This document shows, one piece after another, positions 4,939 through 59,368 of a DNA stretch of 64,000 nt; position 1 is the first letter of the stretch, and every line of letters begins with the position of its first letter. Where the stretch lies: positions 1,346 to 65,345 of the IMG/VR virus record IMGVR_UViG_3300047323_000190; one strand, written 5' to 3'. The DNA is from a virus. Taxonomy: Duplodnaviria; Caudoviricetes. The notes beneath the pieces are model-generated. The model worked only from the letters and a program-made list of their open reading frames with translations. It was not told the origin of the DNA and ran no database searches. Both the position numbers and the translations under genes were made by a program.

Positions 4939-5192
4939 GGTGCCAATTTGGTGCCATGGCGCGCGAGACAAAACCTAACCCGTTGAAAACCAAGACACTT
5001 TACCGAGGTACTGATTCCATCGATGATGGGTTTCGAGTAGTCGGCTATGAGCCTTGATTTCATTGGGTTTCGTTGTTTCTCAAGGGTTTACGGCTCGTTT
5101 GTATCCGTACCATATTACCTCGTTTACCCTCATCCTGTCTTGTTTTTGTGGTGCCACGGTGCCAAAATCGGTGCCGCAAAACTCATGGCACC
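4939..5192. other. Putative attP with arm repeats, IHF-like sites and core
   Basis: GGTGCCA at 4939, 4950, 5150, 5158; GGTGCCG at 5170; inverted TGGCACC at 5186; TCAA-N4-TTA IHF-like boxes; candidate core CGATGATGG at 5021-5029. Confidence 0.65.
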
Positions 5193-5206
5193 ACGGGACA
5201 GGACAA

Positions 5207-6292
5207 ATGGGCGCAATCACACCTAGAACGAACAAGGATGGTAGCACCTCCTACAAGGCCCAAGTGCGGATACGCAAGGGCGGCAAGGTTCTGCACCAGG
5301 AAACACAGACCTTCACGCGAGAGCAGGCGGCCAAGGCCTGGGTTAAGAAACGCGAGACCGAACTGGCTGATCCAACCGGCCTGAAAAAGGCGCTGGCGGA
5401 AGACCCGCCGATTAAAGACCTGATCGACCGCGCTCGCAGGGAAACGAAAAGGCGCATGAGCACATCAAAGATCAATGTGCTGAAAATGATCGAAGCGCAT
5501 GAATTTGCTGAAACGAAATGCTCGCATATCGACAGCGCTGCGCTGGTCAAGTTCGTTAATAGTCTCGGCGTTTCGCCATCGACGGGTGATAATTATTTCT
5601 CTCACCTGTCATCCGTTCTGAAAATCGCCCGTCCAGCATGGGGATATCCGGTCGATAATCAGGCGATTGAAGATGCGCGAGTCGTGATGAAACGGATGGG
5701 CACCATTGCCCGTTCGAATAAACGTGACCGGCGCCCGACTCGTGACGAAATGAATCGGCTAATGGACTATTTCAGCAAATCCAAAAGCACGCGCGGCGAT
5801 ACCGTACCGATGACGGCGATTTGCCTGATGACGATTTATTCGTTGCGCCGGGCAATCGAGATATGCAATATCACCTGGCAGGATTTAGACGTCGATGGGT
5901 GCCGGGTAATGGTCCGTGATCTGAAACACCCGGAAGAAAAACAGGGAAACGATACCTGGTGCTATCTGACACCCGAAGCCCTACGCGTCATTCAGGCTCA
6001 ACCGAAAGTAGAAGGTCAGCCGCGAATCTTCCCATATGCGGAAAAGTCAGCCAGCATGGCTTTCACCAATGCCGTGCAGGCGCTGGGCATTGACGATCTA
6101 GTCCTGAATGACCTGCGCCACGAGGGAGCCTCGCGCCTGTCTGAGATGGGCTGGACTGTTCAGCGCGTTGCGTCCGTTTCTGGGCACCGATCGTGGAATA
6201 CCCTGAAACGGTACACGCACGTTCGGGAGGTTGGCGACAAATGGGCTGGCTGGGAATGGCTGGACCGGGTAGCTCCTCAAGCGGCAAACTGA
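5207..6292 (+). CDS. int: Tyrosine integrase, dusA-associated-integrase-like
   Basis: R (SLRR), K (DLKH), NDLRH, SGH, RY catalytic motifs; N-terminus MGAITPRTNKDGSTSYKAQVRI resembles this family. Confidence 0.93.
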   Translation: MGAITPRTNKDGSTSYKAQVRIRKGGKVLHQETQTFTREQAAKAWVKKRETELADPTGLKKALAEDPPIKDLIDRARRETKRRMSTSKINVLKMIEAHEFAETKCSHIDSAALVKFVNSLGVSPSTGDNYFSHLSSVLKIARPAWGYPVDNQAIEDARVVMKRMGTIARSNKRDRRPTRDEMNRLMDYFSKSKSTRGDTVPMTAICLMTIYSLRRAIEICNITWQDLDVDGCRVMVRDLKHPEEKQGNDTWCYLTPEALRVIQAQPKVEGQPRIFPYAEKSASMAFTNAVQALGIDDLVLNDLRHEGASRLSEMGWTVQRVASVSGHRSWNTLKRYTHVREVGDKWAGWEWLDRVAPQAAN

Positions 6293-13883: not shown

Positions 13884-14773
13884 TTTTGATCTCCTTGTTC
13901 TGCGGCGATCTGCCGTGCAAACTCGTCGCTGAAATCATCGTCGCCCGGTTCACGTTGAACGGCGGCCCTGGCGACGACGAACGTCTTGCCTTTCGCCTCA
14001 ACCGTCGCCTTGAATGTGTTGTAAGCGGTCATGTCTTTCGCGGCCTTGATTTCACGCACGCCGTTCGTCCAGACAGCTTTCAACTTGTCCGCGTCTACTG
14101 CAGCATTCGCTGCGTCAACCCATTTCTGCGTCAGCGCGGGATCAGTGGCCGGGCCAGCGTCGGCGAATTGCTCGCGGATCGTCTCGTCCAAATCCTCCAG
14201 ATCCTGCGCAAAGATGTCCGAGCAACCAAGCGCCGTCAGCGTCAGGTCGATCTGGGCTCGTTTCTTCGCCATCTTCAGGACCGTGTTCGACATGTCGGCA
14301 GGCGAGACGCGAATCTGCTTCGTCTGCTGTACCTTGTTCTGCCACTTGCCCCACTTGATGCGGCGATCCGTTTCGTCAGCGGCTTCGTATTCCTCGTCGC
14401 AGACCGCGCGGCGCCATGCATACTTATCCTCGCCAGTGGAGCACTCACCCACCCCATAGCCGACTTCATAGTTGGTGCCAATGTGGCGGCCTACGCATTT
14501 GACGCGGTAGCGGATCTCGCGCACACGCCCGCGATCATCGCGGCTGGTGAATTCCTCGACAATCGGCTCGACTGCAATCCGAAAGGTGGAAAGCAAAGCC
14601 TCCGAGCCAGCCTTGTACAAGCTCGGCTGCTTGCATCCGGGAATGATCCCGTAATGGACGTTTTCCTTCATGACCGACTGCATCACCGTCTGAATCGTGC
14701 GAGCGGTCTGCAGCGTGTCCTGCACCGATATGGGCGCACTCTCGCGCCGCGGCATTTCGATTACTTCGTTCAT
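13880..14773 (-). CDS. Putative single-strand annealing (recombination) protein
   Basis: HYG.IPG...PSL.KAG.E...NT.LKMA.KRA..D...F.QD; directly upstream of the exonuclease. Confidence 0.6.
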   Translation of the reverse strand: MNEVIEMPRRESAPISVQDTLQTARTIQTVMQSVMKENVHYGIIPGCKQPSLYKAGSEALLSTFRIAVEPIVEEFTSRDDRGRVREIRYRVKCVGRHIGTNYEVGYGVGECSTGEDKYAWRRAVCDEEYEAADETDRRIKWGKWQNKVQQTKQIRVSPADMSNTVLKMAKKRAQIDLTLTALGCSDIFAQDLEDLDETIREQFADAGPATDPALTQKWVDAANAAVDADKLKAVWTNGVREIKAAKDMTAYNTFKATVEAKGKTFVVARAAVQREPGDDDFSDEFARQIAAEQGDQK

Positions 14774-16086
14774 GCTGCCTCCTTTTGTTCGATGCGACGC
14801 TGGATTAGCTCGCTGCGCCACTTGTTCAGTTCGGTGGAAAGCGATTCGATGCCGTGGAAGATCGGTTCCGCGTTGCCGCAGCAGACGTACCCCATATCGA
14901 ATTCAGGGTGGCCGCAGCAGTCTTGGCCGATCGGTCGAGCGATTTCTTGCAGCACGTCTTCAAGCATTCCAAGGCCGTCATTGGCGAAGTGCAGGGCATG
15001 CAGACGCGCAACCTCGGCTTCGAGTGCGGCGCGCTCGACTTCTGCCTTCGCTTCGCGCTCCTTGCGTTCGGCCTCGGCTGCTTGCTCCGCTGCGATCCGC
15101 TCCTGCTCCGCGAAGATCCAATCCGCTTCAGCCTGGGCCGCAGCGGCACGCTCTGCCTCTGCCTTTTCCGCCGCTTCCCGTGTGATGCGTTCCTGTTCAG
15201 CCTTGGCTCGGTCGATCTCGGCTTGCTGCCTGGCTAATTCGGCACGCTCCGCGGCCATGCGTGCTTCATGCGCTGCACGCTCGGCGTCGATCGCCTCTTG
15301 AGCGAGACGTTGCGCTTCACGGCTCTCAGCCTCTTCCTGTTCGCGGACTTCGCGATCGCGGCGCTCCTGTTCAAGGCGGGCGGCACGGTCTTTCGCTTCC
15401 TGTGCAACTCGCTCCTCGGCGGCGATACGCTCGCGTTCTTCCTGCTCTGCCCGAAGTCGCGCCAGTTCCTCACGTTCCGCCTGCAGGCGCTTCGCCTCAG
15501 CTTCGTGCGCCAATTGCGCCGACAGCATCTCGCCCATCTTGGAGAGCGCTGAAATCTTGGCTACCTCACACTCGCCTGCGAACTCGGCAAAATCTTCTAG
15601 CGTGATCTGCACCGCCTCCAGCCCTTCAATTGCCGCCGCAATCGTTGCCGACTGCTTGCCGACCAGCATGGAAGGAATCGACTGCATTTCGGCGATGCGC
15701 TTGCGGATTGCGTCGACTCGGGCTTTCTCGGCGGCCAGCTTTGCATGGCGCTCAACCTCGACTGCGGCATCCCATGCATCCCTTAACTTCTGGAGTCGCG
15801 CTTCCTCGGCCTGCGTAATCTCGATAAGGCGCTTTTCTTCGGCGATCACCGCTTTACCGAACTTGACAGCATCGTCCCGCGCATCCTTACCGGCGTTCTC
15901 AATGGCGATTCGCGCGTTCTTCAGCGTCATGTACGCTGCATGAGCCTGCTCGCGCCCGGCCTTGTTCTTGATCTCTACAATGTCGCTGTACTTCTTCGAG
16001 AGTTCGATCAAGGACTTTTCATGTTCGGCGGCGCCAAGTGCTACGGCTGCGCGTTCGGGCACGGTCAGTTCTTTGGACTCGCTCAT
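14770..16086 (-). CDS. Long coiled-coil protein
   Basis: E/A/R-rich helical sequence next to recombination genes. Confidence 0.8.
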   Translation of the reverse strand: MSESKELTVPERAAVALGAAEHEKSLIELSKKYSDIVEIKNKAGREQAHAAYMTLKNARIAIENAGKDARDDAVKFGKAVIAEEKRLIEITQAEEARLQKLRDAWDAAVEVERHAKLAAEKARVDAIRKRIAEMQSIPSMLVGKQSATIAAAIEGLEAVQITLEDFAEFAGECEVAKISALSKMGEMLSAQLAHEAEAKRLQAEREELARLRAEQEERERIAAEERVAQEAKDRAARLEQERRDREVREQEEAESREAQRLAQEAIDAERAAHEARMAAERAELARQQAEIDRAKAEQERITREAAEKAEAERAAAAQAEADWIFAEQERIAAEQAAEAERKEREAKAEVERAALEAEVARLHALHFANDGLGMLEDVLQEIARPIGQDCCGHPEFDMGYVCCGNAEPIFHGIESLSTELNKWRSELIQRRIEQKEAA

Positions 16087-16388
16087 GCGACCACCCCGCT
16101 CGCATCGAACGTCAGGCACTTAAGCTGCGCGAGCGCATCATCAATCTTCGCCGCGGCCTTCGTGAACTCTTCGGTCAGCTTTTCCCTTTTGGCAAGCAGG
16201 CATTGCACTTGCCCGGACAAGATATCCACGTCGGGAGCATCGACTTCGATCGTGTGAGCGCACAACGGAATGTAGCCCTGCGAGACCCAAAACCTCGTTT
16301 CCTCGCCATCCCAGAAACTGATCTTAGGATTCGCCGGGTTGTATTCATTGGGCTGCGCATACAGCCATCCGGATATGACGATCTTCAT
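16083..16388 (-). CDS. Hypothetical protein
   Basis: Coupled ORF with SD. Confidence 0.65.
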   Translation of the reverse strand: MKIVISGWLYAQPNEYNPANPKISFWDGEETRFWVSQGYIPLCAHTIEVDAPDVDILSGQVQCLLAKREKLTEEFTKAAAKIDDALAQLKCLTFDASGVVA

Positions 16389-17147: not shown

Positions 17148-17351
17148 CTACACTCCCAAAATCGATTTAATAGCCAGCGCCGCGATGGCGACTACTGCAG
17201 CAGCGGTAGTCCACATAAGGATTTCTGCGCGCTGACGGTCGTTGTGTGCATCGCGTTGCGCTTCTTCGCGGTGTTGCCATTCGGCCAGCTTGGCGCGGCC
17301 AGCATCGCTAACGGTCAGTACGTAATCGTCGGTGCGTTCGTAGGTCAGCAT
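17148..17351 (-). CDS. Small protein with C-terminal TM segment
   Basis: Hydrophobic C-terminus. Confidence 0.6.
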   Translation of the reverse strand: MLTYERTDDYVLTVSDAGRAKLAEWQHREEAQRDAHNDRQRAEILMWTTAAAVVAIAALAIKSILGV

Positions 17352-17647
17352 TACCAGCCTCCCGTGCCGTCTTGTCCATGAGACGTGGTCGATTCAAAAA
17401 GTGCCTGTTCATGATCGATCTCGCGGCGGAGCCAATCGGGATGGTTCGCGTTGCGATCGCCAACACTCGCCTGAAAAGCAGCGTTCTGACCCGTGCGCTT
17501 TTCCTGTTGCTTTGCCTTGCAAGACTTCGAGCAGAACAATCCCCATCCGCGCTTAACGTCAGCCTTTCGTGCCATGAACGGCTTGCGGCACCATTTGCAT
17601 TTGCGCTCGACCATTACAGGCGGCGGATACTGCTTAGACGCGTCCAT
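17351..17647 (-). CDS. Zinc-finger-like protein
   Basis: CKWC.K.F.AR.AD.KRGW..FCSKSC. Confidence 0.7.
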   Translation of the reverse strand: MDASKQYPPPVMVERKCKWCRKPFMARKADVKRGWGLFCSKSCKAKQQEKRTGQNAAFQASVGDRNANHPDWLRREIDHEQALFESTTSHGQDGTGGW

Positions 17648-17837
17648 GCCACTCCCCCACTCCAAGCCCGCGCGCCTCGGCGTCGAGACGATCCCAATAG
17701 CGGTCATCCCATTCGGCGGCTCGTTCGGCTTCCGTCTGCGGCGGCTCGCCGTCAAGGTGCGCGTCTGCCGCCCTATCCTGCAGGAACTCATATTCCCGTT
17801 GCTGCTGCTTAAACTTGCGAAGGCTTCGGTATGCCAT
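17634..17837 (-). CDS. Hypothetical protein
   Basis: ORF with GAGG SD. Confidence 0.5.
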   Translation of the reverse strand: MAYRSLRKFKQQQREYEFLQDRAADAHLDGEPPQTEAERAAEWDDRYWDRLDAEARGLGVGEWHGRV

Positions 17838-17972
17838 TTTCGTAGTCCTCAATTCGTGTGATATTGGAACCCTGGCGGGTGACGGCTGCGTTCAACCGGC
17901 AATCGTCAGGTGCCCGCTTCCCACGGGCTGCGGCTTATAGTTGCTCAGAGCGGCCGTCGCTTAGAAAAGACA

Positions 17973-18155
17973 TCAGCTCTCGCGGTACCAGTATTCATAT
18001 CGTTCCAGCGCCCACTCCCTGACGACCGCGTATTTCTCATCGTCGTTCAAGGCGCACCACTCTGCTTCACTAAGACCAACCTCGCTCAGGTTGATCTCTT
18101 CCTTGTACTCGCTATGAATGTTCGCGCCGTTGTCACAGTGAAACGTGATCTTCAT
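17973..18155 (-). CDS. Small acidic hypothetical protein
   Basis: GANIHS...EW..L...EK...EWA. Confidence 0.65.
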   Translation of the reverse strand: MKITFHCDNGANIHSEYKEEINLSEVGLSEAEWCALNDDEKYAVVREWALERYEYWYRES

Positions 18156-18236
18156 GCTTCCCTCAGATGTTAGGTAGGACGTTGCTGAGGCGCCCGGTTC
18201 GGCTTTGTGCGATCGACACGCGGCGCCAGCGGGGTA

Positions 18237-18359
18237 CTACCAGAACTTCGCGATGAAGTGCAGGCCGACGTAGATCGCTCCGCACCCGCCCGCTATCACA
18301 CTCAAAGTAATCAGGACGGCGAGAATCTCAACCACCGTGAATCCGCGTTGCTTTTTCAC
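18237..18359 (-). CDS. 40-aa prepilin-type N-terminal cleavage/methylation peptide (absent from ORF track)
   Basis: GTG-KKQRG|FTVVEILAVLITLSVIAGGCGAIYVGLHFIAKFW*; GAGGGAG SD; GTGA overlap with upstream stop. Confidence 0.7.
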   Translation of the reverse strand: MKKQRGFTVVEILAVLITLSVIAGGCGAIYVGLHFIAKFW

Positions 18360-18478
18360 GCTCCCTCCCTCTCAAATTGTTGAACCGGCCGGCGACGCGT
18401 ATCAGCGCCGCGAATGAACAAGATCGCAGCGATGGCGACTAGCGCCCAGGCTGATAGGGTGATTTGCAGGGCGGTCAT
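18356..18478 (-). CDS. Small single-TM protein (40 aa)
   Basis: MTALQITLSAWALVAIAAILFIRGA. Confidence 0.6.
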   Translation of the reverse strand: MTALQITLSAWALVAIAAILFIRGADTRRRPVQQFEREGA

Positions 18479-18861
18479 GGTTGCTCCTGAAGGGCGCGGA
18501 CTCGATCCGCAAGGGCGTTGTCGCCGATGATGATTGCCATGCGCAGCGCCAGTTCCATGAACCATTTAGGCATGTCTTCTTCGCCATCGCCGCGTAGGAC
18601 GTGGGCGTGGCCGATCAGCGTGTAGACGTCGCCGTCCGTCAGCGCTTTCGGCTCGCTGGCGGGCGCGTCCAAGGAAAACTCATCCTCAAGGCCAAGCACG
18701 TAGACCAGCATCGCTTCCGCTTCCTTTGCCGTCAGGAGGTTCGTCCCTGAGCGCGGATGCGGGTAATCGGGATTGGTCGCGCACCCATCCGATGCAACTG
18801 TCTTCGGAAGCGGCCATGCCAGAAATCGGTCAACCAGTGTCTTGATGTCCATATTCAGCAC
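18475..18861 (-). CDS. Hypothetical protein
   Basis: VDRFL.W.LP...GTNLLT..EA..M. Confidence 0.7.
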   Translation of the reverse strand: MLNMDIKTLVDRFLAWPLPKTVASDGCATNPDYPHPRSGTNLLTAKEAEAMLVYVLGLEDEFSLDAPASEPKALTDGDVYTLIGHAHVLRGDGEEDMPKWFMELALRMAIIIGDNALADRVRALQEQP

Positions 18862-19012
18862 CAGGTAAATGAAGGGGTCTGCCAGTCGATCTCCACAGTC
18901 CGGCAGCGGATGCGGTGACCGTCCTTGCAGATATAGTCCGTGACGATCATCAGCGCGTATTGCAGAGCAACGAAGGTTGAGTGATAGCCGGTCATGATGT
19001 GTCTCCAGCGTG

Positions 19013-19243
19013 TTATGGCAGCGTCTTGCCAGTCACGTCCTGCACGTACTTGCGCATGACGTCGATTGCCTCGGCCTCTTTGCCGAAGTAGAACGCGTAG
19101 AAGATTCGATTCAGGTCTTCCTTCGCCTCGTCCGCGTCTGCCATGACTGGCAGGTTTCTGCGCGTCAGTTCCTTAACAAGGTCTTCGTCCGATGCGTCTT
19201 CGAGGACGTCGGTATCGTCGACCCAAACCTCTACGTATGGCAT
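19013..19243 (-). CDS. Hypothetical protein
   Basis: GGAG SD; acidic. Confidence 0.65.
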   Translation of the reverse strand: MPYVEVWVDDTDVLEDASDEDLVKELTRRNLPVMADADEAKEDLNRIFYAFYFGKEAEAIDVMRKYVQDVTGKTLP

Positions 19244-19672
19244 GTTTGCTCCGTAGTTGTACTAAGCGCGCGGCTCAGTGAAATTCAGTTCGGGGCCTAA
19301 CGGGCCCCATCCCTATAAACGCACCTTCAGGAATAAGCCCCGTATCCAGGGGCGAGGAATGCAGCATTCACGGAGGCGCGCTGGCTATGCTAGGAAGCTC
19401 GCTACTGGTGTTTCCTGCCGTAAGAACCGGGGCTAATATCCACCGGGCCAGCAGGCCTTACGCCGCGTTACTTTGCAGGGAAACAACGCGCTTTCGTGAA
19501 AACTGCTCACGTGCGAGACCAGTCTGTATTCCCGGTCCCGCACGCCTTCCGCCGCAGCCGCACAACTCACAAGGTCACACGACTGCTGCGGGTGCGTTCG
19601 CTTTTTACTCGAGCGAACAGCTATGTTCCGAGTCCTCAAACATCGAGGAATGGCTGGCTATACAAGCCCTTG

Positions 19673-19717
19673 ACGGCTCACCATGAGCCGGTGTTACTTG
19701 CTTTTTGTTAAAGAACA
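19673..19717 (-). promoter_or_regulatory. boxA-like antitermination site plus hairpin (nutL-like)
   Basis: Minus strand TGTTCTTTAACA (19717-19706) followed by a CGGCTCA/TGAGCCG hairpin. Confidence 0.55.
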
Positions 19718-19802
19718 TTTGTGCTCCACGGTTAGCGCCATGCTGCCGTGGTACTGCGTGCTATCGGTACTGAGAAGCGCTGTCGCTTCTCGCTACGGAC
19801 AG

Positions 19803-20531
19803 TTAGGCTGCTGCCGTCTGATACTTCGCCCACTGCTCCGCGATCCACGCGATACCCTTCGGCGTGAACATGGACTGCGTGAAGGCGTGGTCGTTGTTGC
19901 CGATACCCGCCTTCACCGCGAATCGTTCCGCGTGCTGGTGATGGGCGTAGGCCGTCAGGCGACCATTCAGGCGATACATGATGTTGTTGCTAATCAGAAA
20001 GGCGCCGAACTCGCGTTCGTTTGCATTAAGCAACTTGGCGACTTCGCGGAATCCTTTGTTGCCATCGGCTTGCGTGTAGCGCTCAACGAATTCGACGGCT
20101 GGCTTCTGCGCCTCCAATTGCGCGGACTGCAGCTCTATCTGTTCCGCTTGCTCTGCGGCGAGACGAAGTGCACCTGAAAGCGTCGTGGGAATCTTGAACT
20201 GGACTACGTTCGACTTAGCTTGGCGCTCGCAAGCGATGAAGTAATCGCGAATATCGCGGCCCTTCGCCGTGCGGGACATCATCGCAACGTGCTTGCCGCA
20301 TTCCAGCGTCAGTACATACTCAATACGCGGGCGATTTCCCTTTTCCCCTTTCTGGGGGAATGCTTCGAAATCAATGCCTTGCGTGAACAGATCGCCAAGT
20401 TGCGCTTTGATCCAATCGCTGAAGTCTTTGCGGATCTCGAGGAATTCGTGCAGATCACGCGCATTGACGGTCTGAATCGACTCGTCGCCGATGCTGCGTT
20501 CCGTTACTTCGATCAAGGCTTGCTGGCTCAT
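19803..20531 (-). CDS. ant: Antirepressor (AntA/AntB plus KilAC domains)
   Basis: VNARDLHEFL....DFSDWIK...R.YFI.CE; PTT.S.AL..AA...KP.VEF...FTPKG..W. Confidence 0.9.
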   Translation of the reverse strand: MSQQALIEVTERSIGDESIQTVNARDLHEFLEIRKDFSDWIKAQLGDLFTQGIDFEAFPQKGEKGNRPRIEYVLTLECGKHVAMMSRTAKGRDIRDYFIACERQAKSNVVQFKIPTTLSGALRLAAEQAEQIELQSAQLEAQKPAVEFVERYTQADGNKGFREVAKLLNANEREFGAFLISNNIMYRLNGRLTAYAHHQHAERFAVKAGIGNNDHAFTQSMFTPKGIAWIAEQWAKYQTAAA

Positions 20532-20566: not shown

Positions 20567-20608
20567 ATTATTGCAAATGTACTTAGGTAGGTCAAGTACA
20601 TTTGTGCT
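20567..20608 (-). promoter_or_regulatory. pL promoter with two 14-bp operators
   Basis: TTGACC-17-AATAAT; operators ATTGCAAATGTACT (20570) and AGTACATTTGTGCT (20595). Confidence 0.75.
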
Positions 20609-20695: not shown

Positions 20696-21469
20696 TTATT
20701 CGTCTTCGTCGTAGTGCGTGTGGGCGCGCATCCGGCCGATGATCTCAAGCCCGTCCCGGTCACTGTGAAGCGTGGCGTAGTCGTTATTCAGCGGGATCAG
20801 CTCAAATGTCATGATGCCTCGTTCATTGAGCCCAATCTCGCGGTATTTACGAAACACGCCGTCGCCCGACCTGGTACGGGCAAAGACGTACTTCCCAGGC
20901 GCCGGCGGTCGCTCGGGATCGATGATAACAACGACTCGGCCTCGTTCAAACGTAGGCTCCATCGAACTGTCTTCGATGGGGATCGCGAATGTAGACGGGG
21001 ATGATTCCTTGTGGATGGTGATGCGCCCCAACGGCTCGCCAAGAGTATTGGGATCAATCAACGCAGTCATTTTTGTAGCCTGCTCGCTAGTTAGGATGGG
21101 TATCTCTCGCAGGGGCTGTAAAACGTTTGCGTCAGCAGACCCTGTTGGCCCTCCACCAATCCTATGACTACGCGTTGTCAGGGAATCCTTAATCAGATGC
21201 CCCTTTTGCCCACTAATTGAAACATCGGATGCACTTGTTTTGTGCTTTGAAATGCCGAGCATCTCCCCTCGCCCGGTCTCTAGCCACTCCGGTCGAACTC
21301 CCAGCGCTCCAGCGAGCTTCAAAATGTGTTTCGTGCCCTGATTCCGACCCCGTTCTATCTGCGCAATCGTTGACTGAGATACTCCCGACGCCTTTGCTAG
21401 TTGTTCTTGCGACATCTCACGGGCCTCGCGGCGGTCTCGGACCCTGTCGCCAAATGTTGTGGTAACCAT
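20696..21469 (-). CDS. cI: CI-like repressor (HTH plus S24 peptidase)
   Basis: HTH SQEQLAKASGVSQSTIAQIERG; SM.P and K catalytic dyad region. Confidence 0.92.
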   Translation of the reverse strand: MVTTTFGDRVRDRREAREMSQEQLAKASGVSQSTIAQIERGRNQGTKHILKLAGALGVRPEWLETGRGEMLGISKHKTSASDVSISGQKGHLIKDSLTTRSHRIGGGPTGSADANVLQPLREIPILTSEQATKMTALIDPNTLGEPLGRITIHKESSPSTFAIPIEDSSMEPTFERGRVVVIIDPERPPAPGKYVFARTRSGDGVFRKYREIGLNERGIMTFELIPLNNDYATLHSDRDGLEIIGRMRAHTHYDEDE

Positions 21470-21542
21470 ATTGCAATCGTAATAGGGTCTAGGATTGCTT
21501 TGGTACTTGCGTTCCAAGTACAAATGCAATAAGATGTACTTC
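21470..21542. promoter_or_regulatory. oR region: pR and three 14-bp operators
   Basis: TTGCGT-17-TAAGAT; operators at 21470, 21494, 21517 match those at pL; cI and cro appear leaderless. Confidence 0.75.
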
Positions 21543-21815
21543 ATGAACGCACAAGCCATCATCTCCGAACTCGTGAACCGCGGCCTGACGCAGCAAGAAA
21601 TCCAGCGTCGCAGCGGTGTCCATCAGTCTACCGTGTCGGCGCTGCTGACTGGTCGGCGCGGCAAAAACACGTCCTACGACATTGTCACGAAACTTCAGAA
21701 GTTGCTCGAGGAAGTGATAGCTGAGCAAAGCAAATCCATCGACGACGCCCAAAACAATCCGGGCGGGAGTTCGGAAAGAAAACTCAAACAAGCGCGCGAA
21801 CGTAGCGCGATCTAA
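21543..21815 (+). CDS. cro: Cro-like HTH protein
   Basis: GLTQQEI....GV.QSTVS.L; divergent from cI. Confidence 0.85.
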   Translation: MNAQAIISELVNRGLTQQEIQRRSGVHQSTVSALLTGRRGKNTSYDIVTKLQKLLEEVIAEQSKSIDDAQNNPGGSSERKLKQARERSAI

Positions 21816-39653: not shown

Positions 39654-40178
39654 ATGGCCCTGTGCGGAGCTAAAGGCCGCAACGGTCAACCATGTAAGCG
39701 CCACGCCTCGGTAGGAGCCAAGCGCTGCAAGTTGCACGGCGGCAACAACAAACCAGCAAAGAAAGGTAACAAGTACGCCGCGAAACCCGGTGGTCTTTAC
39801 AGCGCGTACCTGACGCCCGAAGAAACCAAGATCGCGGCAGCTCTCACGCTCGGCTCGGTCGACGAAGAGATCCGTCTGACCCGTATTCGTCTGATGCGCG
39901 CCCTGAAGCTTGAGGAAGAACGCGCTGACACCGCTGAACTGGACAGCGAAGTCGAGAGGGATGGTGCTGAGAACGTCTCGGCCAAATACGAACGACATTC
40001 GAAAGTCCGCGATTACGCTGGCCTGATTGATCGCTTGACAGCGCGCATTGCGATGCTCGAGAAGACGCGTGCCGAACTGAACAAAGATGCTCCGGACGGC
40101 GGCGAAGATGACCTGATGCGAGATGACACGGTCATCCTGAAACCTGATGAACCGATCCCTGAGAAACCCATCGTCTAA
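39654..40178 (+). CDS. terS: Terminase small subunit (HGGxSTG-like N-terminus)
   Basis: CGAK.R.G.PC...RC.LHGG...GN..A...G.Y; upstream of TerL. Confidence 0.8.
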   Translation: MALCGAKGRNGQPCKRHASVGAKRCKLHGGNNKPAKKGNKYAAKPGGLYSAYLTPEETKIAAALTLGSVDEEIRLTRIRLMRALKLEEERADTAELDSEVERDGAENVSAKYERHSKVRDYAGLIDRLTARIAMLEKTRAELNKDAPDGGEDDLMRDDTVILKPDEPIPEKPIV

Positions 40179-41457
40179 CGTCAATCTGACGCCGAAACAG
40201 GCGAACATCTTTGCGTGGGGTTTCCAGCCTGAGGCTCGTTTCCGCGATGCCGTATGCGGTCGACGCTTCGGCAAGACGTTTCTCGGTGCCAAAGAGATGC
40301 GCCGGGCGGCCAAGCTGGCTGCCAAATGGGGCGTGTCGACTGACGACGAGATCTGGTACGCGGCTCCGACGTTCAAGCAGGCAAAGCGCGTTTTCTGGCG
40401 CCGGCTGAAAAAAGCGATTCCGCCGAACTGGCGCTTTGGCAAGCCGAACGAGACGGAATGCAGCATCACGCTCAAGACCGGGCATGTGATGCGAATTGTC
40501 GGGCTGGATGCTTACGACAATCTGCGCGGTTCCGGTCTGTTCTTCGTGCTGGTCGACGAGTGGGCGGATTGCCCATATGAGGCGTGGGAAGAAGTCCTGC
40601 GCCCGATGCTTTCGACCTGTCGCTACTACGTTGATGGCGTCGAGCGCCGCGGCGGCCATGCTTTACGGATCGGCACGCCGAAGGGATTCAATCATTGCTA
40701 CGACACCTATCTGGCTGGCCAGGATGGCCGCGAGCCGGATCACAAAAGCTGGCTGTACACATCGGTTCAGGGCGGCAACGTCCCGGTAGAGGAAATCGAA
40801 GCGGCGCGTCGCAGCATGGACCCGCGCACGTACCGGCAAGAGTACGAAGCCAGCTTTGAGAATTACCAGGGCGTCATTTACTACTGCTTTGATCGTCGGG
40901 CGAATCACACTGACGAGACGATCCAAGCTGGCGACGAGCTGCATATTGGCATGGACTTTAACGTCGCCCACATGAGCGGCATCGTTTTTGTCATTCGTGA
41001 CGGCGAGCCGCGGGCGGTAGACGAGATGGTCGACGTGTTCGATACGCCGGCCATCATTGAAAAGATCAACGAGCGCTACGCCGGCCACAAGATCACGGTC
41101 TATCCGGACGCGTCTGGCGACAACCGAAAAACCAGCAATGCCAGCGAGTCAGATATTGCATTGCTGAAGAAGGGCGGCTTTAAGGTGGTTGTGAATTCAG
41201 CCAATCCCGCCGTCAAGGACCGCATCAACAGCAAAAACGCGATGCTTTGCAACACGTATGGCGACCGACGTTTGCTGGTGAACACGAAGAAATGCCCGAA
41301 ATACACGCAGGCGCTCGAGCGTCAGGTGTGGGACGAGAAGAGTCAGCCAGATAAGACGGCTGGATTCGATCACCCGAACGACGCAGGCGGCTACTTCATC
41401 GTGAAGACCTACCCGATCGTCAAGCGCACCACCACCGTAACCAGTTTCAACGCATAA
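40147..41457 (+). CDS. terL: Terminase large subunit
   Basis: GRRFGKT, VDE, GTPKG, RQEY.ASF, G.DFN, DH..DA..Y. Confidence 0.95.
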   Translation: MNRSLRNPSSNVNLTPKQANIFAWGFQPEARFRDAVCGRRFGKTFLGAKEMRRAAKLAAKWGVSTDDEIWYAAPTFKQAKRVFWRRLKKAIPPNWRFGKPNETECSITLKTGHVMRIVGLDAYDNLRGSGLFFVLVDEWADCPYEAWEEVLRPMLSTCRYYVDGVERRGGHALRIGTPKGFNHCYDTYLAGQDGREPDHKSWLYTSVQGGNVPVEEIEAARRSMDPRTYRQEYEASFENYQGVIYYCFDRRANHTDETIQAGDELHIGMDFNVAHMSGIVFVIRDGEPRAVDEMVDVFDTPAIIEKINERYAGHKITVYPDASGDNRKTSNASESDIALLKKGGFKVVVNSANPAVKDRINSKNAMLCNTYGDRRLLVNTKKCPKYTQALERQVWDEKSQPDKTAGFDHPNDAGGYFIVKTYPIVKRTTTVTSFNA

Positions 41458-41466
41458 GCCAACCGC

Positions 41467-42864
41467 ATGACATCCACCGTCCGAGACACAACGCCCGCAG
41501 TAGATGCGATGACCGAGGATGATGCGGTCATTGCCGCGCTGTTGGGCGGGACGACCGCCATGCGCAAGGCTGGCAAGACGTATCTGCCGCAGTGGCCCAA
41601 CGAGACAGACTCTGCCTATAAGGCTAGGTGCGCCGCAGCCACGCTGTTTCCTGCTTATGCGCGGACGACGGAGGTTCTGACCGGAAAGCCCTTCTCGAAG
41701 CCCCTTACGTTCGCAGATGACGTTCCGGAGCAGATCAAGGAGTGGTGCGAGAACATCGATCTGCAGGGGCACAACCTGCACGCGTTCGGCGCGGCGGTAT
41801 GTAAGCACGCGATCGACTACGGGCTGTGCGGCATCCTTGCCGACTTCCCACCTACTCGCGGTCGCTTGAAGACGAGAGCCGACGAAGCTGCAGCGGGCGT
41901 CCGACCTTACCTCGTCCATATCCACAAGCAGAATATTCTGGGCTGGCGGGCGCAGCGAATCAACGGCGTTCTGACACTCACCCAGTTGCGCTTTCTGGAG
42001 TCGGTCACCGAGCCAGATGGTCCTTTCGCCGAGACGACGATTGACCAGGTGCGCGTTCTCTACCCCGGCAAGTGGGAAGTGTGGCGAGAGAGCGACCAGG
42101 TAGACGCGGACGGAAAGAAGATCTGGGTGATTCACGACAAGGGCTCGACGACTCTCAAGAAAATTCCGTTCGTGCCGGTCTACGGCAAGCGGACTGGTTT
42201 CATGCAGGGTACGGCGCCCTTGGTCGAACTGGCGCACATGAATGTCGAGCACTGGCAGAGCAAATCTGACCAGCAGACGATTCTGCACATCGCTCGCATC
42301 CCGCTGCTGTTCGGCAAGAATCTCGACGGCGCTGAAATCACCGTAGGGACATCATCGGCCATCGTTGCGGACGGTGAGAATGCCGATCTTCGCTATGTCG
42401 AGCACTCGGGCAAGGCGATCGAGGCCGGTCGCCAGTCGCTGAAGGACCTCGAAGACGGTATGCGTCAGGTCGGTGCAGAGCTGCTCGTTATCAAGCCGGG
42501 CAATACCACGATCGTCCAGACACAGGCCGATAACGAAGCCGGTATGTGCGTGCTTCAGCGCATCGCACAGGATCTGGAAGACGCGCTGGACGAAGCATTG
42601 CAGCTCGTCGCGGAATGGGTCCGGTTGCCAGAAGGCGGGCACGTCACCGTGTTCAAGGACTTCGGCGTCGCGTCGCTTGAGGCTGCATCGCTTGAGCTAC
42701 TGCGGGACATGAACGTCGATGGAACGCTATCGGATGAAACGCTCTATCGAGAAGGTCAGCGCCGCGGCGTGATCGGTCCCGACGTAAGTTGGGAAGACGA
42801 AAAAACGCGCATCAAGGCCAATACGCCGAAGCAGGAACTTGGCAAGGTTGGCATCACAGATTAA
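41467..42864 (+). CDS. Portal protein (DUF4055-like)
   Basis: Follows TerL; GGT.AMR.AG..YLP....E....Y..R. Confidence 0.88.
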   Translation: MTSTVRDTTPAVDAMTEDDAVIAALLGGTTAMRKAGKTYLPQWPNETDSAYKARCAAATLFPAYARTTEVLTGKPFSKPLTFADDVPEQIKEWCENIDLQGHNLHAFGAAVCKHAIDYGLCGILADFPPTRGRLKTRADEAAAGVRPYLVHIHKQNILGWRAQRINGVLTLTQLRFLESVTEPDGPFAETTIDQVRVLYPGKWEVWRESDQVDADGKKIWVIHDKGSTTLKKIPFVPVYGKRTGFMQGTAPLVELAHMNVEHWQSKSDQQTILHIARIPLLFGKNLDGAEITVGTSSAIVADGENADLRYVEHSGKAIEAGRQSLKDLEDGMRQVGAELLVIKPGNTTIVQTQADNEAGMCVLQRIAQDLEDALDEALQLVAEWVRLPEGGHVTVFKDFGVASLEAASLELLRDMNVDGTLSDETLYREGQRRGVIGPDVSWEDEKTRIKANTPKQELGKVGITD

Positions 42865-43785: not shown

Positions 43786-44934
43786 ATGGCGAATACGCTT
43801 ACATCCCTCGTACCCGACCTGTACGAAGCGCTTGACGTTGTCTCGCGCGAACTGTCGGGTTTCATCCCCTCCGTCACGCTCGACGCATCGGCTGCCCGTG
43901 CAGCTCTGAACCAGGCTGTTCGCGTGCCGATCACGCCGGCCGCTGCCGCTGAAGACGTGACGCCGGGTCAATTGCCGCCCGATGACGGCGATCAGATCAT
44001 CGGCAATACGCCGATTACGATCTCCAAGTCGCGTACCGTTCCGTTCCGCTGGTCGGGCGAAGAACAAAAGGGCGTCAACTCGGGCCCCGGCTATCCGAAC
44101 ATTCGTCGTGACCAGATCGCGCAGGCAATGCGTACGCTGGTCAACGAAATTGAAGCGGCTGTCGGCGGCCTGGCCGTCAGCGCATCGCGCGCATGGGGTA
44201 CGGCTGGCGCCGCCCCGTTCGCAACTGACCTCAGCGACCCGGCCAACGTCCGCAAGATTCTTGCTGACAACGGCGCGCCAATGAGCGACATGCAACTGGT
44301 GATCGACACGACCGCCGGCGCCAAGGTTCGCTCGCTCGCCCAGTTGACGAAAGCCAATGAAGCTGGCACGACCGACGTCCGCGCGCAAGGTACGTTGCTC
44401 GAGATTCACGGCTTCTCGCTGCGCGAATCGGCTGGCGTCCAGCAAATCGCTGCTGGCTCGGTGACGGGCACCGTCACTGCCTCGGGTTCGAAGGGCTCGG
44501 CGTCGGTCACGATCACGACCGCTGCTGGCGCCGCAACCGCGATCCTGGCGGGCGACGTGGTGACCTTCGCGGGCGACACCAACAAGTATGTCGCTGCCGC
44601 TGCGCTGACGTTGGGCGCTTCGACCTCGGGCACGCTGACACTGGTCGATCCGGGCCTGCGCACGACGCTCTCGAGCGCTGCTGTGACGGTGGTTGCAACG
44701 GCAACGCGTAACTTCGCGTTCAGCCGTTCGGCGATCATTCTGGCGACCCGCGTTCCGGCCCTCCCGGAAGAAGGCGATATGGCCGCTGACCGGATGCTGA
44801 TCACCGATCCGCGCACCGGCCTGACGTTCGAAATCGCGATGTACCTCCAGTACCGTCGCGTGCGGTATGAGGTTTCGCTGGCCTATGGTTTCGCCAACAT
44901 TAAGCCGCGCCACACGGCGCTGTTGCTCGGGTAA
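43786..44934 (+). CDS. Major capsid protein (P22-coat-like)
   Basis: MANTLT.L.P....ALD.VSREL.GFIP; size and position. Confidence 0.88.
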   Translation: MANTLTSLVPDLYEALDVVSRELSGFIPSVTLDASAARAALNQAVRVPITPAAAAEDVTPGQLPPDDGDQIIGNTPITISKSRTVPFRWSGEEQKGVNSGPGYPNIRRDQIAQAMRTLVNEIEAAVGGLAVSASRAWGTAGAAPFATDLSDPANVRKILADNGAPMSDMQLVIDTTAGAKVRSLAQLTKANEAGTTDVRAQGTLLEIHGFSLRESAGVQQIAAGSVTGTVTASGSKGSASVTITTAAGAATAILAGDVVTFAGDTNKYVAAAALTLGASTSGTLTLVDPGLRTTLSSAAVTVVATATRNFAFSRSAIILATRVPALPEEGDMAADRMLITDPRTGLTFEIAMYLQYRRVRYEVSLAYGFANIKPRHTALLLG

Positions 44935-47269: not shown

Positions 47270-48796
47270 TTGACACAGATCGTCCAGTACGGGCAGGTCA
47301 ACACCACGGCTTTGATCGTGCCGGACCTGATCGTCCAGATCATCGCGCCGCAAGTAGCGCAACTGAACGGCGTTCCCACGAACGTTGCCGGCTTTGTCGG
47401 TACCGCGACGTGGGGCCCGGTCAACTCCCCGACCATCGTCGGCAGCATGGCTGATTACGCCCGCAATTTCGGCGCGATCCAGAACCGTCTTTACGACATG
47501 GGGACGGCTGTCGCTGCTGCAGTCCTGCAGGGCGCCAACAACTTCCGCTGCGTGCGCGTGACGGATGGTACGGATGCCGCCGCAACCGTTTCCATTCAGT
47601 CGACCTGCCTGACGGCGACTGCCAAGTACACCGGCACGCTCGGCAACTCGGTACAGGTGCAGATCGCCAACGGCTCGCTTGCGAGTTCGTACAAGGCGAT
47701 CGTGACCCTTCCCGGCCAGACGCCGGAAGTGTTCGACAACATCACCGGCTCCGGTAACGCGCTGTGGGTCAACATGGCCGCAGCGATCAACAATGGCCAG
47801 GTCGGTGCGCGCGGTCCCTCGCAGATCATCGTTGCGACGGCTGGTGCGGGCACGACCGCCCCGACGCTGTCGACGTACAGCCTGGTAGGCGGTCTGGACG
47901 GCGCGACGACGATCACCGGCTCGGTGCTGGTTGGTGTCGACACAATCCCGCGCAAGGGCATGTATGCGTTGCGCGGCACGGGTGCATCGGTTGCCGCCCT
48001 CGTTGATTGCTCGGACACGACGACCTTCTCGACGCAGGTGTCGTATGGCCTGTCAGAGGGCACGTACATGATCGGCGCGACGGCCGCTGGCGACACGATC
48101 AGCAACGCGGTGACGACGAAAGCCACTGCTGGCATCGACTCGTACGCGTTCAAGTACATGTTCGGCGACTGGGTCTATTTCCTTGATCCGGTCAATGGCG
48201 GTACGCGCCTGATCTCACCTCAGGGCTACGTCGTTGGCGTGCTGGCGAACCTCGCGCCGCAGAACTCGTCGCTGAACAAGCCGCTGTATGGCGTGGTGGG
48301 CACGCAGAAGTCGTATCAGAACCAGCAGTACTCGAGCGCAGAACTTCAGGCGCTGGCTCAGGCTGGCATCGACGTCATCACGAACCCGATTCCCGCAGGC
48401 AATCAGTTTGGCTGCCGGATCGGTCACAACAGTTCGTCGGACAGCACGCGCAACGGCGACAACTACACGCGGATGACCAACTACCTCGCGGCCACGACGG
48501 CGCAAGGCATGGGCATCTATGACGGGCGTCTGCAATCGGTACAGCCGACCGACCCGCTGCGTCGTTCTGTGAAGGCAACGCTGGACAACTTCTATCTCGG
48601 TCTCCAGCAGCAAAACATGATCGACGACTTCACGGTCCAGTGCGATCTGAACAACAACACGCCGTCGCGCATCGCTCTGGGCTATCTGCAGGCCGATGTC
48701 CGCGTGCGCTACCTCGCTGTCGCCGAAAAGATCCTGATCAACCAGGAAGGCGGCCAGTCCGTGACGATCACCCGTCAGCAAGTCCCCTCGTTTTAA
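47270..48796 (+). CDS. Contractile tail sheath protein
   Basis: GVPTN..G.VG.A.WGPVN.P; C-terminal CD..NN....I..G.L. Confidence 0.92.
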   Translation: MTQIVQYGQVNTTALIVPDLIVQIIAPQVAQLNGVPTNVAGFVGTATWGPVNSPTIVGSMADYARNFGAIQNRLYDMGTAVAAAVLQGANNFRCVRVTDGTDAAATVSIQSTCLTATAKYTGTLGNSVQVQIANGSLASSYKAIVTLPGQTPEVFDNITGSGNALWVNMAAAINNGQVGARGPSQIIVATAGAGTTAPTLSTYSLVGGLDGATTITGSVLVGVDTIPRKGMYALRGTGASVAALVDCSDTTTFSTQVSYGLSEGTYMIGATAAGDTISNAVTTKATAGIDSYAFKYMFGDWVYFLDPVNGGTRLISPQGYVVGVLANLAPQNSSLNKPLYGVVGTQKSYQNQQYSSAELQALAQAGIDVITNPIPAGNQFGCRIGHNSSSDSTRNGDNYTRMTNYLAATTAQGMGIYDGRLQSVQPTDPLRRSVKATLDNFYLGLQQQNMIDDFTVQCDLNNNTPSRIALGYLQADVRVRYLAVAEKILINQEGGQSVTITRQQVPSF

Positions 48797-57628: not shown

Positions 57629-59368
57629 ATGACTGATCGCGTAATCGTCTACGCCGGGTCCATTCCCTTGGAAACCGACGTTCTTCGCAGCAACAAATTT
57701 GCGATGGTCGGAATCGCGAAGCTCGCCGCGGCGATGCTGGGCACGTCCACCATTGTGAATGGGCTGGCGTGCGTGCCGACCGGGCCCGCGTCGCTGACAG
57801 TGAACGTGAATCCGGGCGAGATTTACAGCCTGGTCAGCATGGATGCGACGGCATACTCGTCCGTGGCTGCCGACACGACACACCAGATCATGAAGAGCGG
57901 CATTCTGCTCGACGCGGTCAACCTGTCATGCCCTGCTCCGGGGACAGTCGGTCAGAGCATTAACTACCTGGTGCAAGTGATCTATCAGGATAGCGACACC
58001 GACCTGACGGCTCTGCCCTACTACAACGCAGCAAACCCGACACAGGCGTGGAGCGGCCCGAACAACAGCGGCACACCTCAGGCGACGACTCGCAAGGGCA
58101 TCATTACTATGTCCGCGAAGGCTGGCGCTGCCGCTGCGACTGGCTCGCAAACGACGCCCGCTCCAGACGCCGGTTACACCGGCCTGTGGGTCGTCACCGT
58201 CGCGAACGGTCAAACGCAGATCCTCGCCGGCAACATCGCGCAGTACGCTGGCGCTCCGATCCTCCCGTCGTCCCTGCTTGCCTCTATCCAGAACGGCAAT
58301 CTGTCGTATGCGGTTGCCACTGGCACGGCTAACGCGCACGTCGCGGCCTTCACTCCCGCTATCACGCAGCGTGTTGACGGCATGTTGCTGCGCTACAAGG
58401 CACCCGCTGCCAATACTGGCGCACTGACGCTCAATGATGGTCTGGGGGCAGTCGCTGTCGTCGGTGCTGCTCACGCAGCGCTGCAGGGCGGCGAAACCAT
58501 CACGAACGGCGACGCGCTGGTGATGTGGAACAGCTCGATCGGCGGCGGCTCGTACATCCTCATCGAATGCACTGGTGGCGCCCTCCAAATCGCCCCCGCC
58601 ACTGCAAGCCAGCATGCGGTGCAGTTGGGGCAGGTTTCGGGTGTTGTGGGGACTGCGCGGAATCTGGCTGCCTATCTTGCCGCAGCGAGTGCCTCAGCGA
58701 CTTTCACGGCAGACGAGATTGTCGTGGAAAGCACTCTTGGGGGTCTGCGTTACTGTCTGCCGAGCTATAGCCAGACGATCAACCTTGCCACGACCGGCGC
58801 GGGTGGCATGGACACCGGGACGGCTCCGGTTTCGGGTTACGTTGCGCTGTACGCGATCTATAAGCCGAGCACAAACACGATTAGCATTCTGGCAACGAAT
58901 GCCGCTTCGCTCGTTGGAAATGTATACGGTGGCGCGAATATGCCGTCCGGCTATACGGCAAGCGCACTTCTGATGGTATGGCCTACCAATGGCAGCTCGC
59001 AGTTGGTACAGGGGCTTACGCAGGATCGGGAGTTTAGCCGGATTTTCAATCAAGTCCTGAGTTCGACATCTACGCCAGCCTCCTTTACTTCACTGTCAAT
59101 CAGTGGCGTAGTCCCGGCGAATGCAAAAAGCGTATCGGGAACGATACAAATTTCAAGCAGCGCGACAGCGACTTCGCAACTATTCGTGGCTGGTGATGCC
59201 AACGGGTTGGGGCGCCGATATGTTGTCGGTAGCAATCCTTCGACAGCATTTTCGGCTGGGGCGCCGTTCGATGCTCGGCTCCAGACGTCTCAAACCTTGT
59301 ACTGGTCTTCAACCACCAATGGTGGAACATTGACGTCAATCATCGAAATCTCCCGTTATTCTATCTAA
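57629..59368 (+). CDS. Tail fibre protein
   Basis: Follows baseplate; modular Thr/Ala/Gly-rich; lower-GC C-terminus. Confidence 0.85.
   Translation: MTDRVIVYAGSIPLETDVLRSNKFAMVGIAKLAAAMLGTSTIVNGLACVPTGPASLTVNVNPGEIYSLVSMDATAYSSVAADTTHQIMKSGILLDAVNLSCPAPGTVGQSINYLVQVIYQDSDTDLTALPYYNAANPTQAWSGPNNSGTPQATTRKGIITMSAKAGAAAATGSQTTPAPDAGYTGLWVVTVANGQTQILAGNIAQYAGAPILPSSLLASIQNGNLSYAVATGTANAHVAAFTPAITQRVDGMLLRYKAPAANTGALTLNDGLGAVAVVGAAHAALQGGETITNGDALVMWNSSIGGGSYILIECTGGALQIAPATASQHAVQLGQVSGVVGTARNLAAYLAAASASATFTADEIVVESTLGGLRYCLPSYSQTINLATTGAGGMDTGTAPVSGYVALYAIYKPSTNTISILATNAASLVGNVYGGANMPSGYTASALLMVWPTNGSSQLVQGLTQDREFSRIFNQVLSSTSTPASFTSLSISGVVPANAKSVSGTIQISSSATATSQLFVAGDANGLGRRYVVGSNPSTAFSAGAPFDARLQTSQTLYWSSTTNGGTLTSIIEISRYSI

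Follow-up and report, generated by a model that had tools for sequence, protein, structure and literature searches.

A phage gene of only 40 codons that begins like a prepilin raises the question of whether it is a real gene with a real prepilin-type signal and, if so, what a pilin lacking a head would do for the phage. The gene, referred to here as the mini-prepilin gene, lies on the minus strand at 18237..18359 of a 64,000-nucleotide stretch of viral DNA (the window), which corresponds to bases 1346-65345 of a 65,345-bp virus record with direct terminal repeats. It starts with GTG and runs over 40 codons to a TAG stop; its 40-aa translation in the ORF list of the window is MKKQRGFTVVEILAVLITLSVIAGGCGAIYVGLHFIAKFW. 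The predicted leader, MKKQRG, occupies codons 1 to 6 (nt 18342-18359, minus strand), and predicted cleavage after Gly6 would leave a mature product of 34 aa. All parts of the layout on which the original prediction was built, MKKQRG/FTVVE (the slash marks the predicted cleavage site), a single hydrophobic helix, and a stop, were present at this position. The strong ribosome-binding site that it described was also found: the minus strand 5' of the GTG reads GAGGGAGGGAGC, and a Shine-Dalgarno-like sequence, GGGAGGGAG, is located at 18361..18369 (minus strand), with GGAGG at 18364-18368, 4 nt before the GTG. GGGAGGA also precedes the ATG of the homologues at two other loci (L086 and L087).

The mini-prepilin start overlaps the stop of the upstream frame as GTGA, and three genes, encoding a 128-aa protein (18475..18861, minus strand), a 40-aa membrane peptide (18356..18478, minus strand), and the mini-prepilin, are joined in series by 4-nt overlaps. 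ATGA is shared by the stop of the 128-aa gene and the start of the membrane peptide, and neither of the two upstream products had a Pfam or PHROG match. The membrane peptide, MTALQITLSAWALVAIAAILFIRGADTRRRPVQQFEREGA, is read from an internal ATG at 18478; a hydrophobic helix at its N terminus is followed by a basic C-tail, and the predicted topology is N-out, C-in. Counterparts of 37 to 43 aa with a -4 overlap or a 1-nt gap were found only in the window and at L072, L073, L074 (identical to L086), and L087. The coupling to this peptide that had been claimed holds for the window, where the GTGA overlap is present, but the partner is confined to one clade of 5 loci. A complex prediction for the two peptides scored 0.03 (mark, 0.32), from which no conclusion is drawn.

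A word-indexed search of 5.8 billion proteins retrieved four proteins, each exactly 40 aa long: the window's own protein, which scored 98% identity because of its GTG start, and three homologues with 78% to 88% identity. Three further IMG/VR loci encode proteins of exactly 40 aa with 50% to 78% identity and an ATG at the same codon. Among seven homologues, pS exceeded pN in 21 out of 21 pairwise comparisons, and dN/dS ranged from 0.15 to 0.56 in the 17 pairs with computable dS. Judged by this pattern of substitution and length conservation, the mini-prepilin gene is a real gene.

The PF07963 (N_methyl) model matched the mini-prepilin at 28.4 bits (E value, 1.1e-6), above its curated cut-off of 21.2, and TIGR02532 matched at 19.0 (cut-off, 16.3), which bore out the prepilin-type start proposed originally. 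The mini-prepilin was the sole N_methyl match in the entire 65,345-bp record, and a Pfam search at an E value of ≤1 returned nothing for it besides N_methyl and T4SS_CagC. According to the available part of the article by Berry and Pelicic (2015; PMC4471445), a class III signal opens with a short hydrophilic leader whose last residue is Gly and continues with some 21 hydrophobic residues, among which Glu5 forms an interruption. In that account, the prepilin peptidase depends critically on Gly-1 for cleavage, and Glu5 is dispensable for this step and required for assembly and, in pili, for methylation. The mini-prepilin reads MKKQRG/FTVVEILAVLITLSVIAGGCGAI, with a short hydrophilic leader ending in Gly and a hydrophobic run interrupted by Glu5.

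A four-sequence profile was run, without restriction on length, on the full set of 1.84 billion cluster representatives, and 184 clusters (50% identity) were obtained at an E value of ≤1e-3, nearly all of them 37 to 45 aa. The best 150 of the 184, together with the four proteins from the word-indexed search, made up the 154 proteins examined. The motif H-F-x-x-K-x-W was present in 150 of the 154, at the C-terminal extremity in 148 of these 150, and absent from P0086 (27 aa), P0096 (63 aa), P0104 (300 aa, repetitive), and P0137 (33 aa). In an alignment of the 134 proteins with 37 to 45 aa and the tail (A2, in which the window protein is the first row, as it is in A1), H34, F35, K38, and W40 were the sole invariant columns. 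The corresponding codons in the window, for H34-F35-I36-A37-K38-F39-W40, are at 18240..18260 (minus strand), and the tail consensus is H-F-[ILV]-x-K-x-W, usually HFIxKFW. A mature length of 34 aa was predicted for 136 of the 150 tail-bearing proteins. A search with the A2 profile returned 125 proteins at an E value of ≤1e-6, which carry automatic names only (prepilin-type domain protein, PilE, PulG, and FimT), and an entry in NCBI goes by the name [quoted passage not shown] None of the models in Pfam, PHROG, or NCBIfam extends over the tail, and the best score in an ESM Atlas search was 0.77, under the useful level. By these sequence features, mini-prepilins are a large family without a name, characterized by a length of 37 to 45 aa, a class III signal, a mature form of about 34 aa, and an H-F-[ILV]-x-K-x-W end, and the window protein has all of these properties.

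The residues that define the signal are well conserved in the family. Among the 150 tail-bearing family proteins listed, position -1 is G in 145, position +1 is F in 113 and Y in 33, position +2 is T in 146, and position +5 is E in 147 and D in 3, frequencies that, like the other residue frequencies of the family, are partly circular because the four-sequence collecting profile carries the same motifs. Position +6 is L in 120 of the 150 and never Y (I in the window protein). The leader is 6 to 7 aa long in 108 and has a net charge of +1 to +3 in 140 of the 150. FTL[IV]EL, the consensus of the family, corresponds to the canonical pilin start, and PF07963 was reached at an E value of ≤1e-3 by 96 of the 134 aligned members and missed by 38. 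Typical type IVa pilins have Pro at +22; none was found at this position in the family, and Pro occurs anywhere in only 9 of the 150 tail-bearing members. As assessed from these sequences, the class III signal of the mini-prepilin is genuine. The conservation of G-1, F1, and E5 expected in the original prediction was thus largely recovered (145, 146 with F or Y, and 147 of 150), but the best-conserved part of the protein, the C-terminal tail, had been overlooked. The retention of Glu5, which is not needed for cleavage, argues for more than processing and suggests contact of the mini-prepilin with the pilin-handling machinery or with partners of pilin stalks.

In 185,579 species genomes, 71 cellular matches were found, all of which were ordinary pilins of 119 to 565 aa aligned over approximately residues 1 to 24 only. 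Likewise, the A2 profile matched only ordinary pilins in five cellular genomes, over positions 1 to 32 at most and mostly 1 to 27, and a DNA pattern for the tail had no match in the 401 genomes searched from the order to which locus L019 (in a Roseateles genome) belongs. Two family members were identified in cultured phages by tblastn. The T5-like Aeromonas phage vB_AdhS_TS3 encodes an unannotated 37-aa member (L075 2501-2614, equivalent to OP820700.1 7483-7596), which lies at 7.5 kb counted from the left end, with gene A1, annotated as pre-early, 5 kb away, and in the T4-like Aeromonas phage Ahp1_CNU-2021 a 42-aa hypothetical protein encoded among tRNA genes is a member. A tblastn search with the family protein P0021 gave no match in cultured phages, and no cultured phage had DNA nearly identical to the window. 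Besides the phage of the window, a temperate myovirus of lambdoid type, many uncultured phages also have members. Since the cellular matches are ordinary pilins and the members are found in phages, the family is mostly a phage family. In the window, vB_AdhS_TS3, and Ahp1_CNU-2021, the member lies in an array of small genes on the same strand, and the family occupies early or accessory small-gene arrays of unrelated phage types. Such small genes are often missed by gene callers, as was the vB_AdhS_TS3 copy, which overlaps the stop of its upstream coding sequence by one base. In addition, a sublineage of three loci (L080, L116, and L139) encodes a class III-like start with Ile at +1 (MKQKG/ITxIE) and a mature peptide of about 30 aa; an 85-aa two-helix membrane protein is encoded just downstream at L080 and L139, and a soluble 75-aa protein is encoded downstream at L116.

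The tail is not restricted to prepilin-like peptides. A degenerate DNA pattern for HFIxKFW plus a stop was run on IMG/VR, with the reversed pattern as a control; at least 118 stretches matched the forward pattern and 23 matched the reversed one. Among the 80 loci listed, 68 had a 20-residue hydrophobic stretch directly before the tail, and the other 12 had no such helix and look like chance matches. The 68 comprised 13 class III-like starts and 55 plain membrane peptides (45 distinct), which are roughly 27 to 55 aa long with basic residues on the N-side of the helix. Partial prepilin motifs were rare, so that the signal was either whole or absent. A Tyr four residues before the His was found in 39 of the 55 plain forms and 11 of the 13 class III forms among the 80 loci listed; this Tyr lies outside the search pattern and is nevertheless kept, which argues that the tail is homologous in the plain and class III forms and that the two share common descent. 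Clusters based on neighboring genes formed within lineages only and never joined class III and plain loci, and no neighboring gene was common to different lineages or pointed to pili. Since the tail ends 55 plain peptides and only 13 class III peptides among the 80 loci listed, its core function may be unrelated to pili.

The plain peptides include those of one low-GC phage lineage, represented by eleven IMG/VR loci (L092, L099, L105, L111-L113, L131-L133, L154, and L156) with conserved synteny and a 29-aa peptide, MRNYLGC...HFIIKFW, whose start ends in Gly-Cys and which has no Glu5. A methyltransferase was the sole match in the host search for this lineage. Matches of the 29-aa peptide to a 367-aa ORF of Klebsiella and Serratia jumbo phages had E values of 3 to 4 only and were judged to be due to chance, and a lipoprotein reading of the MRNYLGC-type peptides was rejected, with no signal-peptide core found before the Cys.

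The PHROG matches identify the record as a temperate myovirus, with an integrase (5054-6292), a large terminase (40147-41457), a portal (41467-42864), a major head protein (43786-44934), a tail sheath (47270-48796), and a tail fibre (57629-59368). Over its full length, the tail fibre shares 62.5% identity with those of Ralstonia phages Hyacinthe, Raharianne, and Albius, and over its C-terminal half it is about 50% identical to Burkholderia phages. The best match of the portal, at 52% identity, was from an uncultured phage. DNA of the phage was detected in 22 sequencing runs, all of them DNA runs from rhizosphere or soil metagenomes.

The mini-prepilin gene belongs to a leftward operon whose first gene encodes an Ant-like anti-repressor (19803..20531, minus strand; phrog_63; E value, 3.9e-57). 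A CI-like repressor with a helix-turn-helix and an S24-type C-terminal half is encoded at 20696..21562 (minus strand; phrog_4; E value, 7.5e-36). A candidate early-left promoter, sigma-70-like with TTGACC, a 17-nt spacing, and AATAAT, is located between the repressor and Ant genes at 20567..20595 (minus strand); such sites are not enriched, 2 having been found against a mean of 2.6 in shuffled sequences. The order of a repressor, Ant, and a run of small genes on one strand is the layout of the lambda early-left operon. Production early in infection, as originally predicted, fits the gene only by its position in the operon behind the CI-like repressor and Ant. Directly downstream of the mini-prepilin gene, a 60-aa protein with a DUF7167 (E value, 7.2e-8) or phrog_8831 (E value, 2e-13) match is encoded at 17973..18155 (minus strand), and an Rfam search of 17900-19900 gave nothing at an E value of ≤0.1.

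With alignment A2 as input, AlphaFold2 predicted a single uninterrupted helix over residues 9 to 39 (mean pLDDT, 93). The mini-prepilin ends 34 residues past the predicted cleavage site and has neither the alpha1-C segment nor the globular beta-sheet head of a pilin. Tyr24, His28, and Lys32 of the mature peptide are four residues apart on the helix and therefore share one face, which in the model would lie near the periplasmic side of the membrane.

The reading that we favor, with a probability of about 0.45, is that the mini-prepilin is a prepilin-peptidase substrate that forms a headless stalk disturbing the type IV pilus or the type II secretion system (T2SS), with the tail as the binding part and the prepilin signal as an address label. 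The gene would be transcribed with the early-left operon of the temperate myovirus and translated after its upstream neighbor through the overlapping stop and start. The product would insert in the inner membrane N-in, C-out, after which the host prepilin peptidase would cut off MKKQRG and probably N-methylate Phe1. The resulting 34-aa product may persist in the membrane as a headless pilin stalk and meet the platform protein, the alignment proteins, other pilins, or pilin-sensing kinases, whereby type IV pilus and/or type II secretion function would be lowered and the phage might gain superinfection exclusion or host takeover. The HFIxKFW tail at the periplasmic face, with the Tyr four residues before the His, would be the effector (binding) end, and the prepilin signal may serve as an address label, acquired by one subfamily of a wider phage membrane-peptide module.

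Against a target in the type IV pilus or T2SS, the invariant residues are located in the C-terminal tail and not in the prepilin signal. The main rival, possible albeit on the unlikely side, is that the peptides are effectors with a target unrelated to pili, in which a transmembrane helix and a Y-x-x-x-H-F-I-x-K-F-W module bind another envelope component, such as the DNA-entry route of a superinfecting phage, a cell wall precursor enzyme, or a membrane-bound defence system, and the prepilin signal is only one of several insertion-and-trimming devices. Such an effector is consistent with the tail H, F, K, and W being the sole invariant columns, with the lack of a class III signal in 55 of the 68 tail-bearing membrane-peptide ORFs among the 80 loci listed, and with the Tyr kept before the His in both forms, which argues for common descent of the tail. 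In addition, the basic N-side flanks of the plain forms imply the same topology, and phages of very different kinds carry members in their early or accessory arrays of small genes. However, an unrelated target leaves unexplained why G-1, F or Y at +1, T+2, and above all E+5 (approximately 97% of the class III subfamily) are retained, and a charged residue within a membrane helix is costly unless it is used. Moreover, there is no candidate for such a target, with neither a Pfam or PHROG match nor a conserved neighbor.

A wider version of the pilus and T2SS reading would join the two forms. HFIxKFW peptides might be widespread phage inner-membrane effectors that dock by way of the tail on one universal component of type IV filament machines, e.g., PilC/GspF, with one branch disguised as a pilin, which we consider rather doubtful; equally doubtful is the further supposition that these effectors are shared by T4-like, T5-like, lambdoid-type, and jumbo-sized phages, with the host prepilin pathway trimming and delivering the disguised branch. 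In a bolder variant, the 34-aa product would be polymerised by the host machine and would be the smallest known pilin.

It is improbable that the stalk mimics the pilin inventory of the cell and is read by PilS-type or PleC-type kinases, so that pilin synthesis is turned off or surface behavior is reprogrammed. Precedents are described in the available parts of two articles, in which a 17-residue Caulobacter PilA stalk signals through PleC and lowers susceptibility to pilus phages (PMC7196804) and PilS binds PilA within the membrane (PMC6058289). However, such kinases are lineage specific, whereas members of the family are found in phages of very different types, and pilins do not have the invariant tail. 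The peptidase decoy put forward in the original prediction, in which the prepilin peptidase is occupied or titrated and host prepilins stay unprocessed, appears very unlikely. The substrate motif is complete, and likely early expression behind a strong ribosome-binding site could give a high copy number, but a cleavable substrate is turned over and is a poor inhibitor, and a decoy needs neither Glu5 (by the available part of PMC4471445), a fixed 34-aa length, nor an invariant tail. Titration was not upheld as the explanation, since it does not account for the best-conserved part of the protein, the C-terminal tail, which is common to at least 55 non-prepilin peptides. Finally, the frame might be open by chance on the strand of an operon with densely packed genes, for which its mere 40 codons and its GTG start could be cited; this is extremely improbable in view of HMM matches above the PF07963 and TIGR02532 cut-offs, 40-aa homologues with 50% to 88% identity and an ATG at the same codon, 21 of 21 pairs with pS above pN, and 184 clusters in the representative library.

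The favored reading, a headless stalk that disturbs pili or type II secretion, was compared with known systems as far as these are described in the available parts of the cited articles. The idea of a headless phage pilin is already in print. Sztanko et al. (2026, Cell Rep) describe a truncated PilA-like protein, P-PilA, comprising the N-terminal ~60 residues, in six virulent Pseudomonas phages, and propose, without experiments in the part of the article available, that it enters the pilus or blocks its assembly, the same two ideas as in the original prediction (PMC12952977). P-PilA and the mini-prepilin are both phage-encoded, with a pilin signal and a stalk but no head, and both are thought of as early superinfection exclusion. 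However, P-PilA has about 60 aa, whereas the mini-prepilin has 40 aa (34 mature), a fixed length, and an invariant HFIxKFW tail and is found in temperate, T5-like, and T4-like phages of other hosts instead of virulent Pseudomonas phages. A PHROG of 59 positions, phrog_10597, which may or may not be P-PilA, matched residues 1 to 23 only of the mini-prepilin (E value, 1.2e-3). The same article shows prophage-encoded FimU mimics (P-FimU) of F10-like Pseudomonas phages, which are likewise phage-encoded, use the host prepilin pathway, and serve phage-phage competition. In the description given there, P-FimU is a full-length functional minor pilin at the tip of a pilus that keeps working, whereas the mini-prepilin is headless (PMC12952977).

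[quoted passage not shown] It resembles the mini-prepilin as a tiny single-helix N-in inner-membrane phage peptide with an aromatic cluster in the C-terminal half; unlike the mini-prepilin, with its class III signal and HFIxKFW, PfsE as described there has no class III signal and carries the motif YxWGW. The likeness concerns architecture and a possible mode of action only, and homology is not claimed. In the available part of PMC7196804, CIP, a peptide made up of the first 17 residues that Caulobacter PilA has in its mature form, binds PleC and, when added as such, cuts phiCbK susceptibility by 77%. Like the stalk proposed here, it is a bare pilin stalk that acts in the membrane and lowers susceptibility to a pilus phage; however, CIP is a laboratory fragment of a host Tad-type pilin with no tail motif in that account, whereas the mini-prepilin is the product of a phage gene. 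PilS is reported, in the available part of PMC6058289, to bind PilA via its membrane segments.

Among cellular proteins, type IVa pilins and T2SS pseudopilins share with the mini-prepilin the leader and the first ~25 residues (PF07963 and TIGR02532) but have an alpha1-C segment and a globular domain, both of which the mini-prepilin lacks. Flp/Tad (type IVc) pilins are natural, nearly headless pilins and resemble it in having a very short mature subunit that is mostly one helix. These pilins carry G/xxxxEY and are cut by TadV-type peptidases; in contrast, position +6 of the mini-prepilin is I, and it is never Y among the 150 tail-bearing family members.

No account of the 40-aa family, the HFIxKFW tail, or its link to plain peptides was found in the literature, within which Table S3 of PMC12952977 may list relatives, and the family size, the invariant tail, and the kinship with non-prepilin peptides are new as far as found. 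Type IV pili and type II secretion underlie adhesion, motility, DNA uptake, and virulence, as well as infection by many phages. The phage-made blockers Tip, Aqs1, and PfsE already serve as tools and inhibitor templates (PMC8764522 and PMC13060843). If the favored reading is true, a natural peptide of 34 residues working through the prepilin pathway would be the smallest agent of this kind, and its synthetic production would be feasible. The link to a broader tail-motif family also makes a large set of small phage genes that lack annotation accessible to testing.

Several other features of the operon were observed. A lysis or holin role of the mini-prepilin was considered and rejected, as its gene has early genes around it and lies well away from the structural and late ones. 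A third small membrane protein of the early operon, with 67 aa and a C-terminal membrane helix, is encoded at 17148-17351 (minus strand); it had no Pfam or PHROG match and is kept downstream of the mini-prepilin gene in related phages, at L072 (7087-7275) and L074 (7040-7231). The ~560 bp between Ant and the next minus-strand ORF (19244-19802) contain no convincing ORF on the operon strand and hold a weak terminator-like hairpin at 19353-19337 (minus strand); this region could be a regulatory or antitermination region. A C2-C2 zinc-finger-like protein is encoded at 17351-17791 (minus strand), with matches to several PHROGs, some of them HNH endonucleases (E values, 1e-7 to 6e-10), and a weak Pfam match to zf-FLZ. 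Furthermore, a 449-aa protein encoded at 14770-16119 (minus strand) in the same leftward operon has a very long, coiled-coil-like middle part rich in Glu, Ala, and Arg and a Cys-rich C-terminal end.
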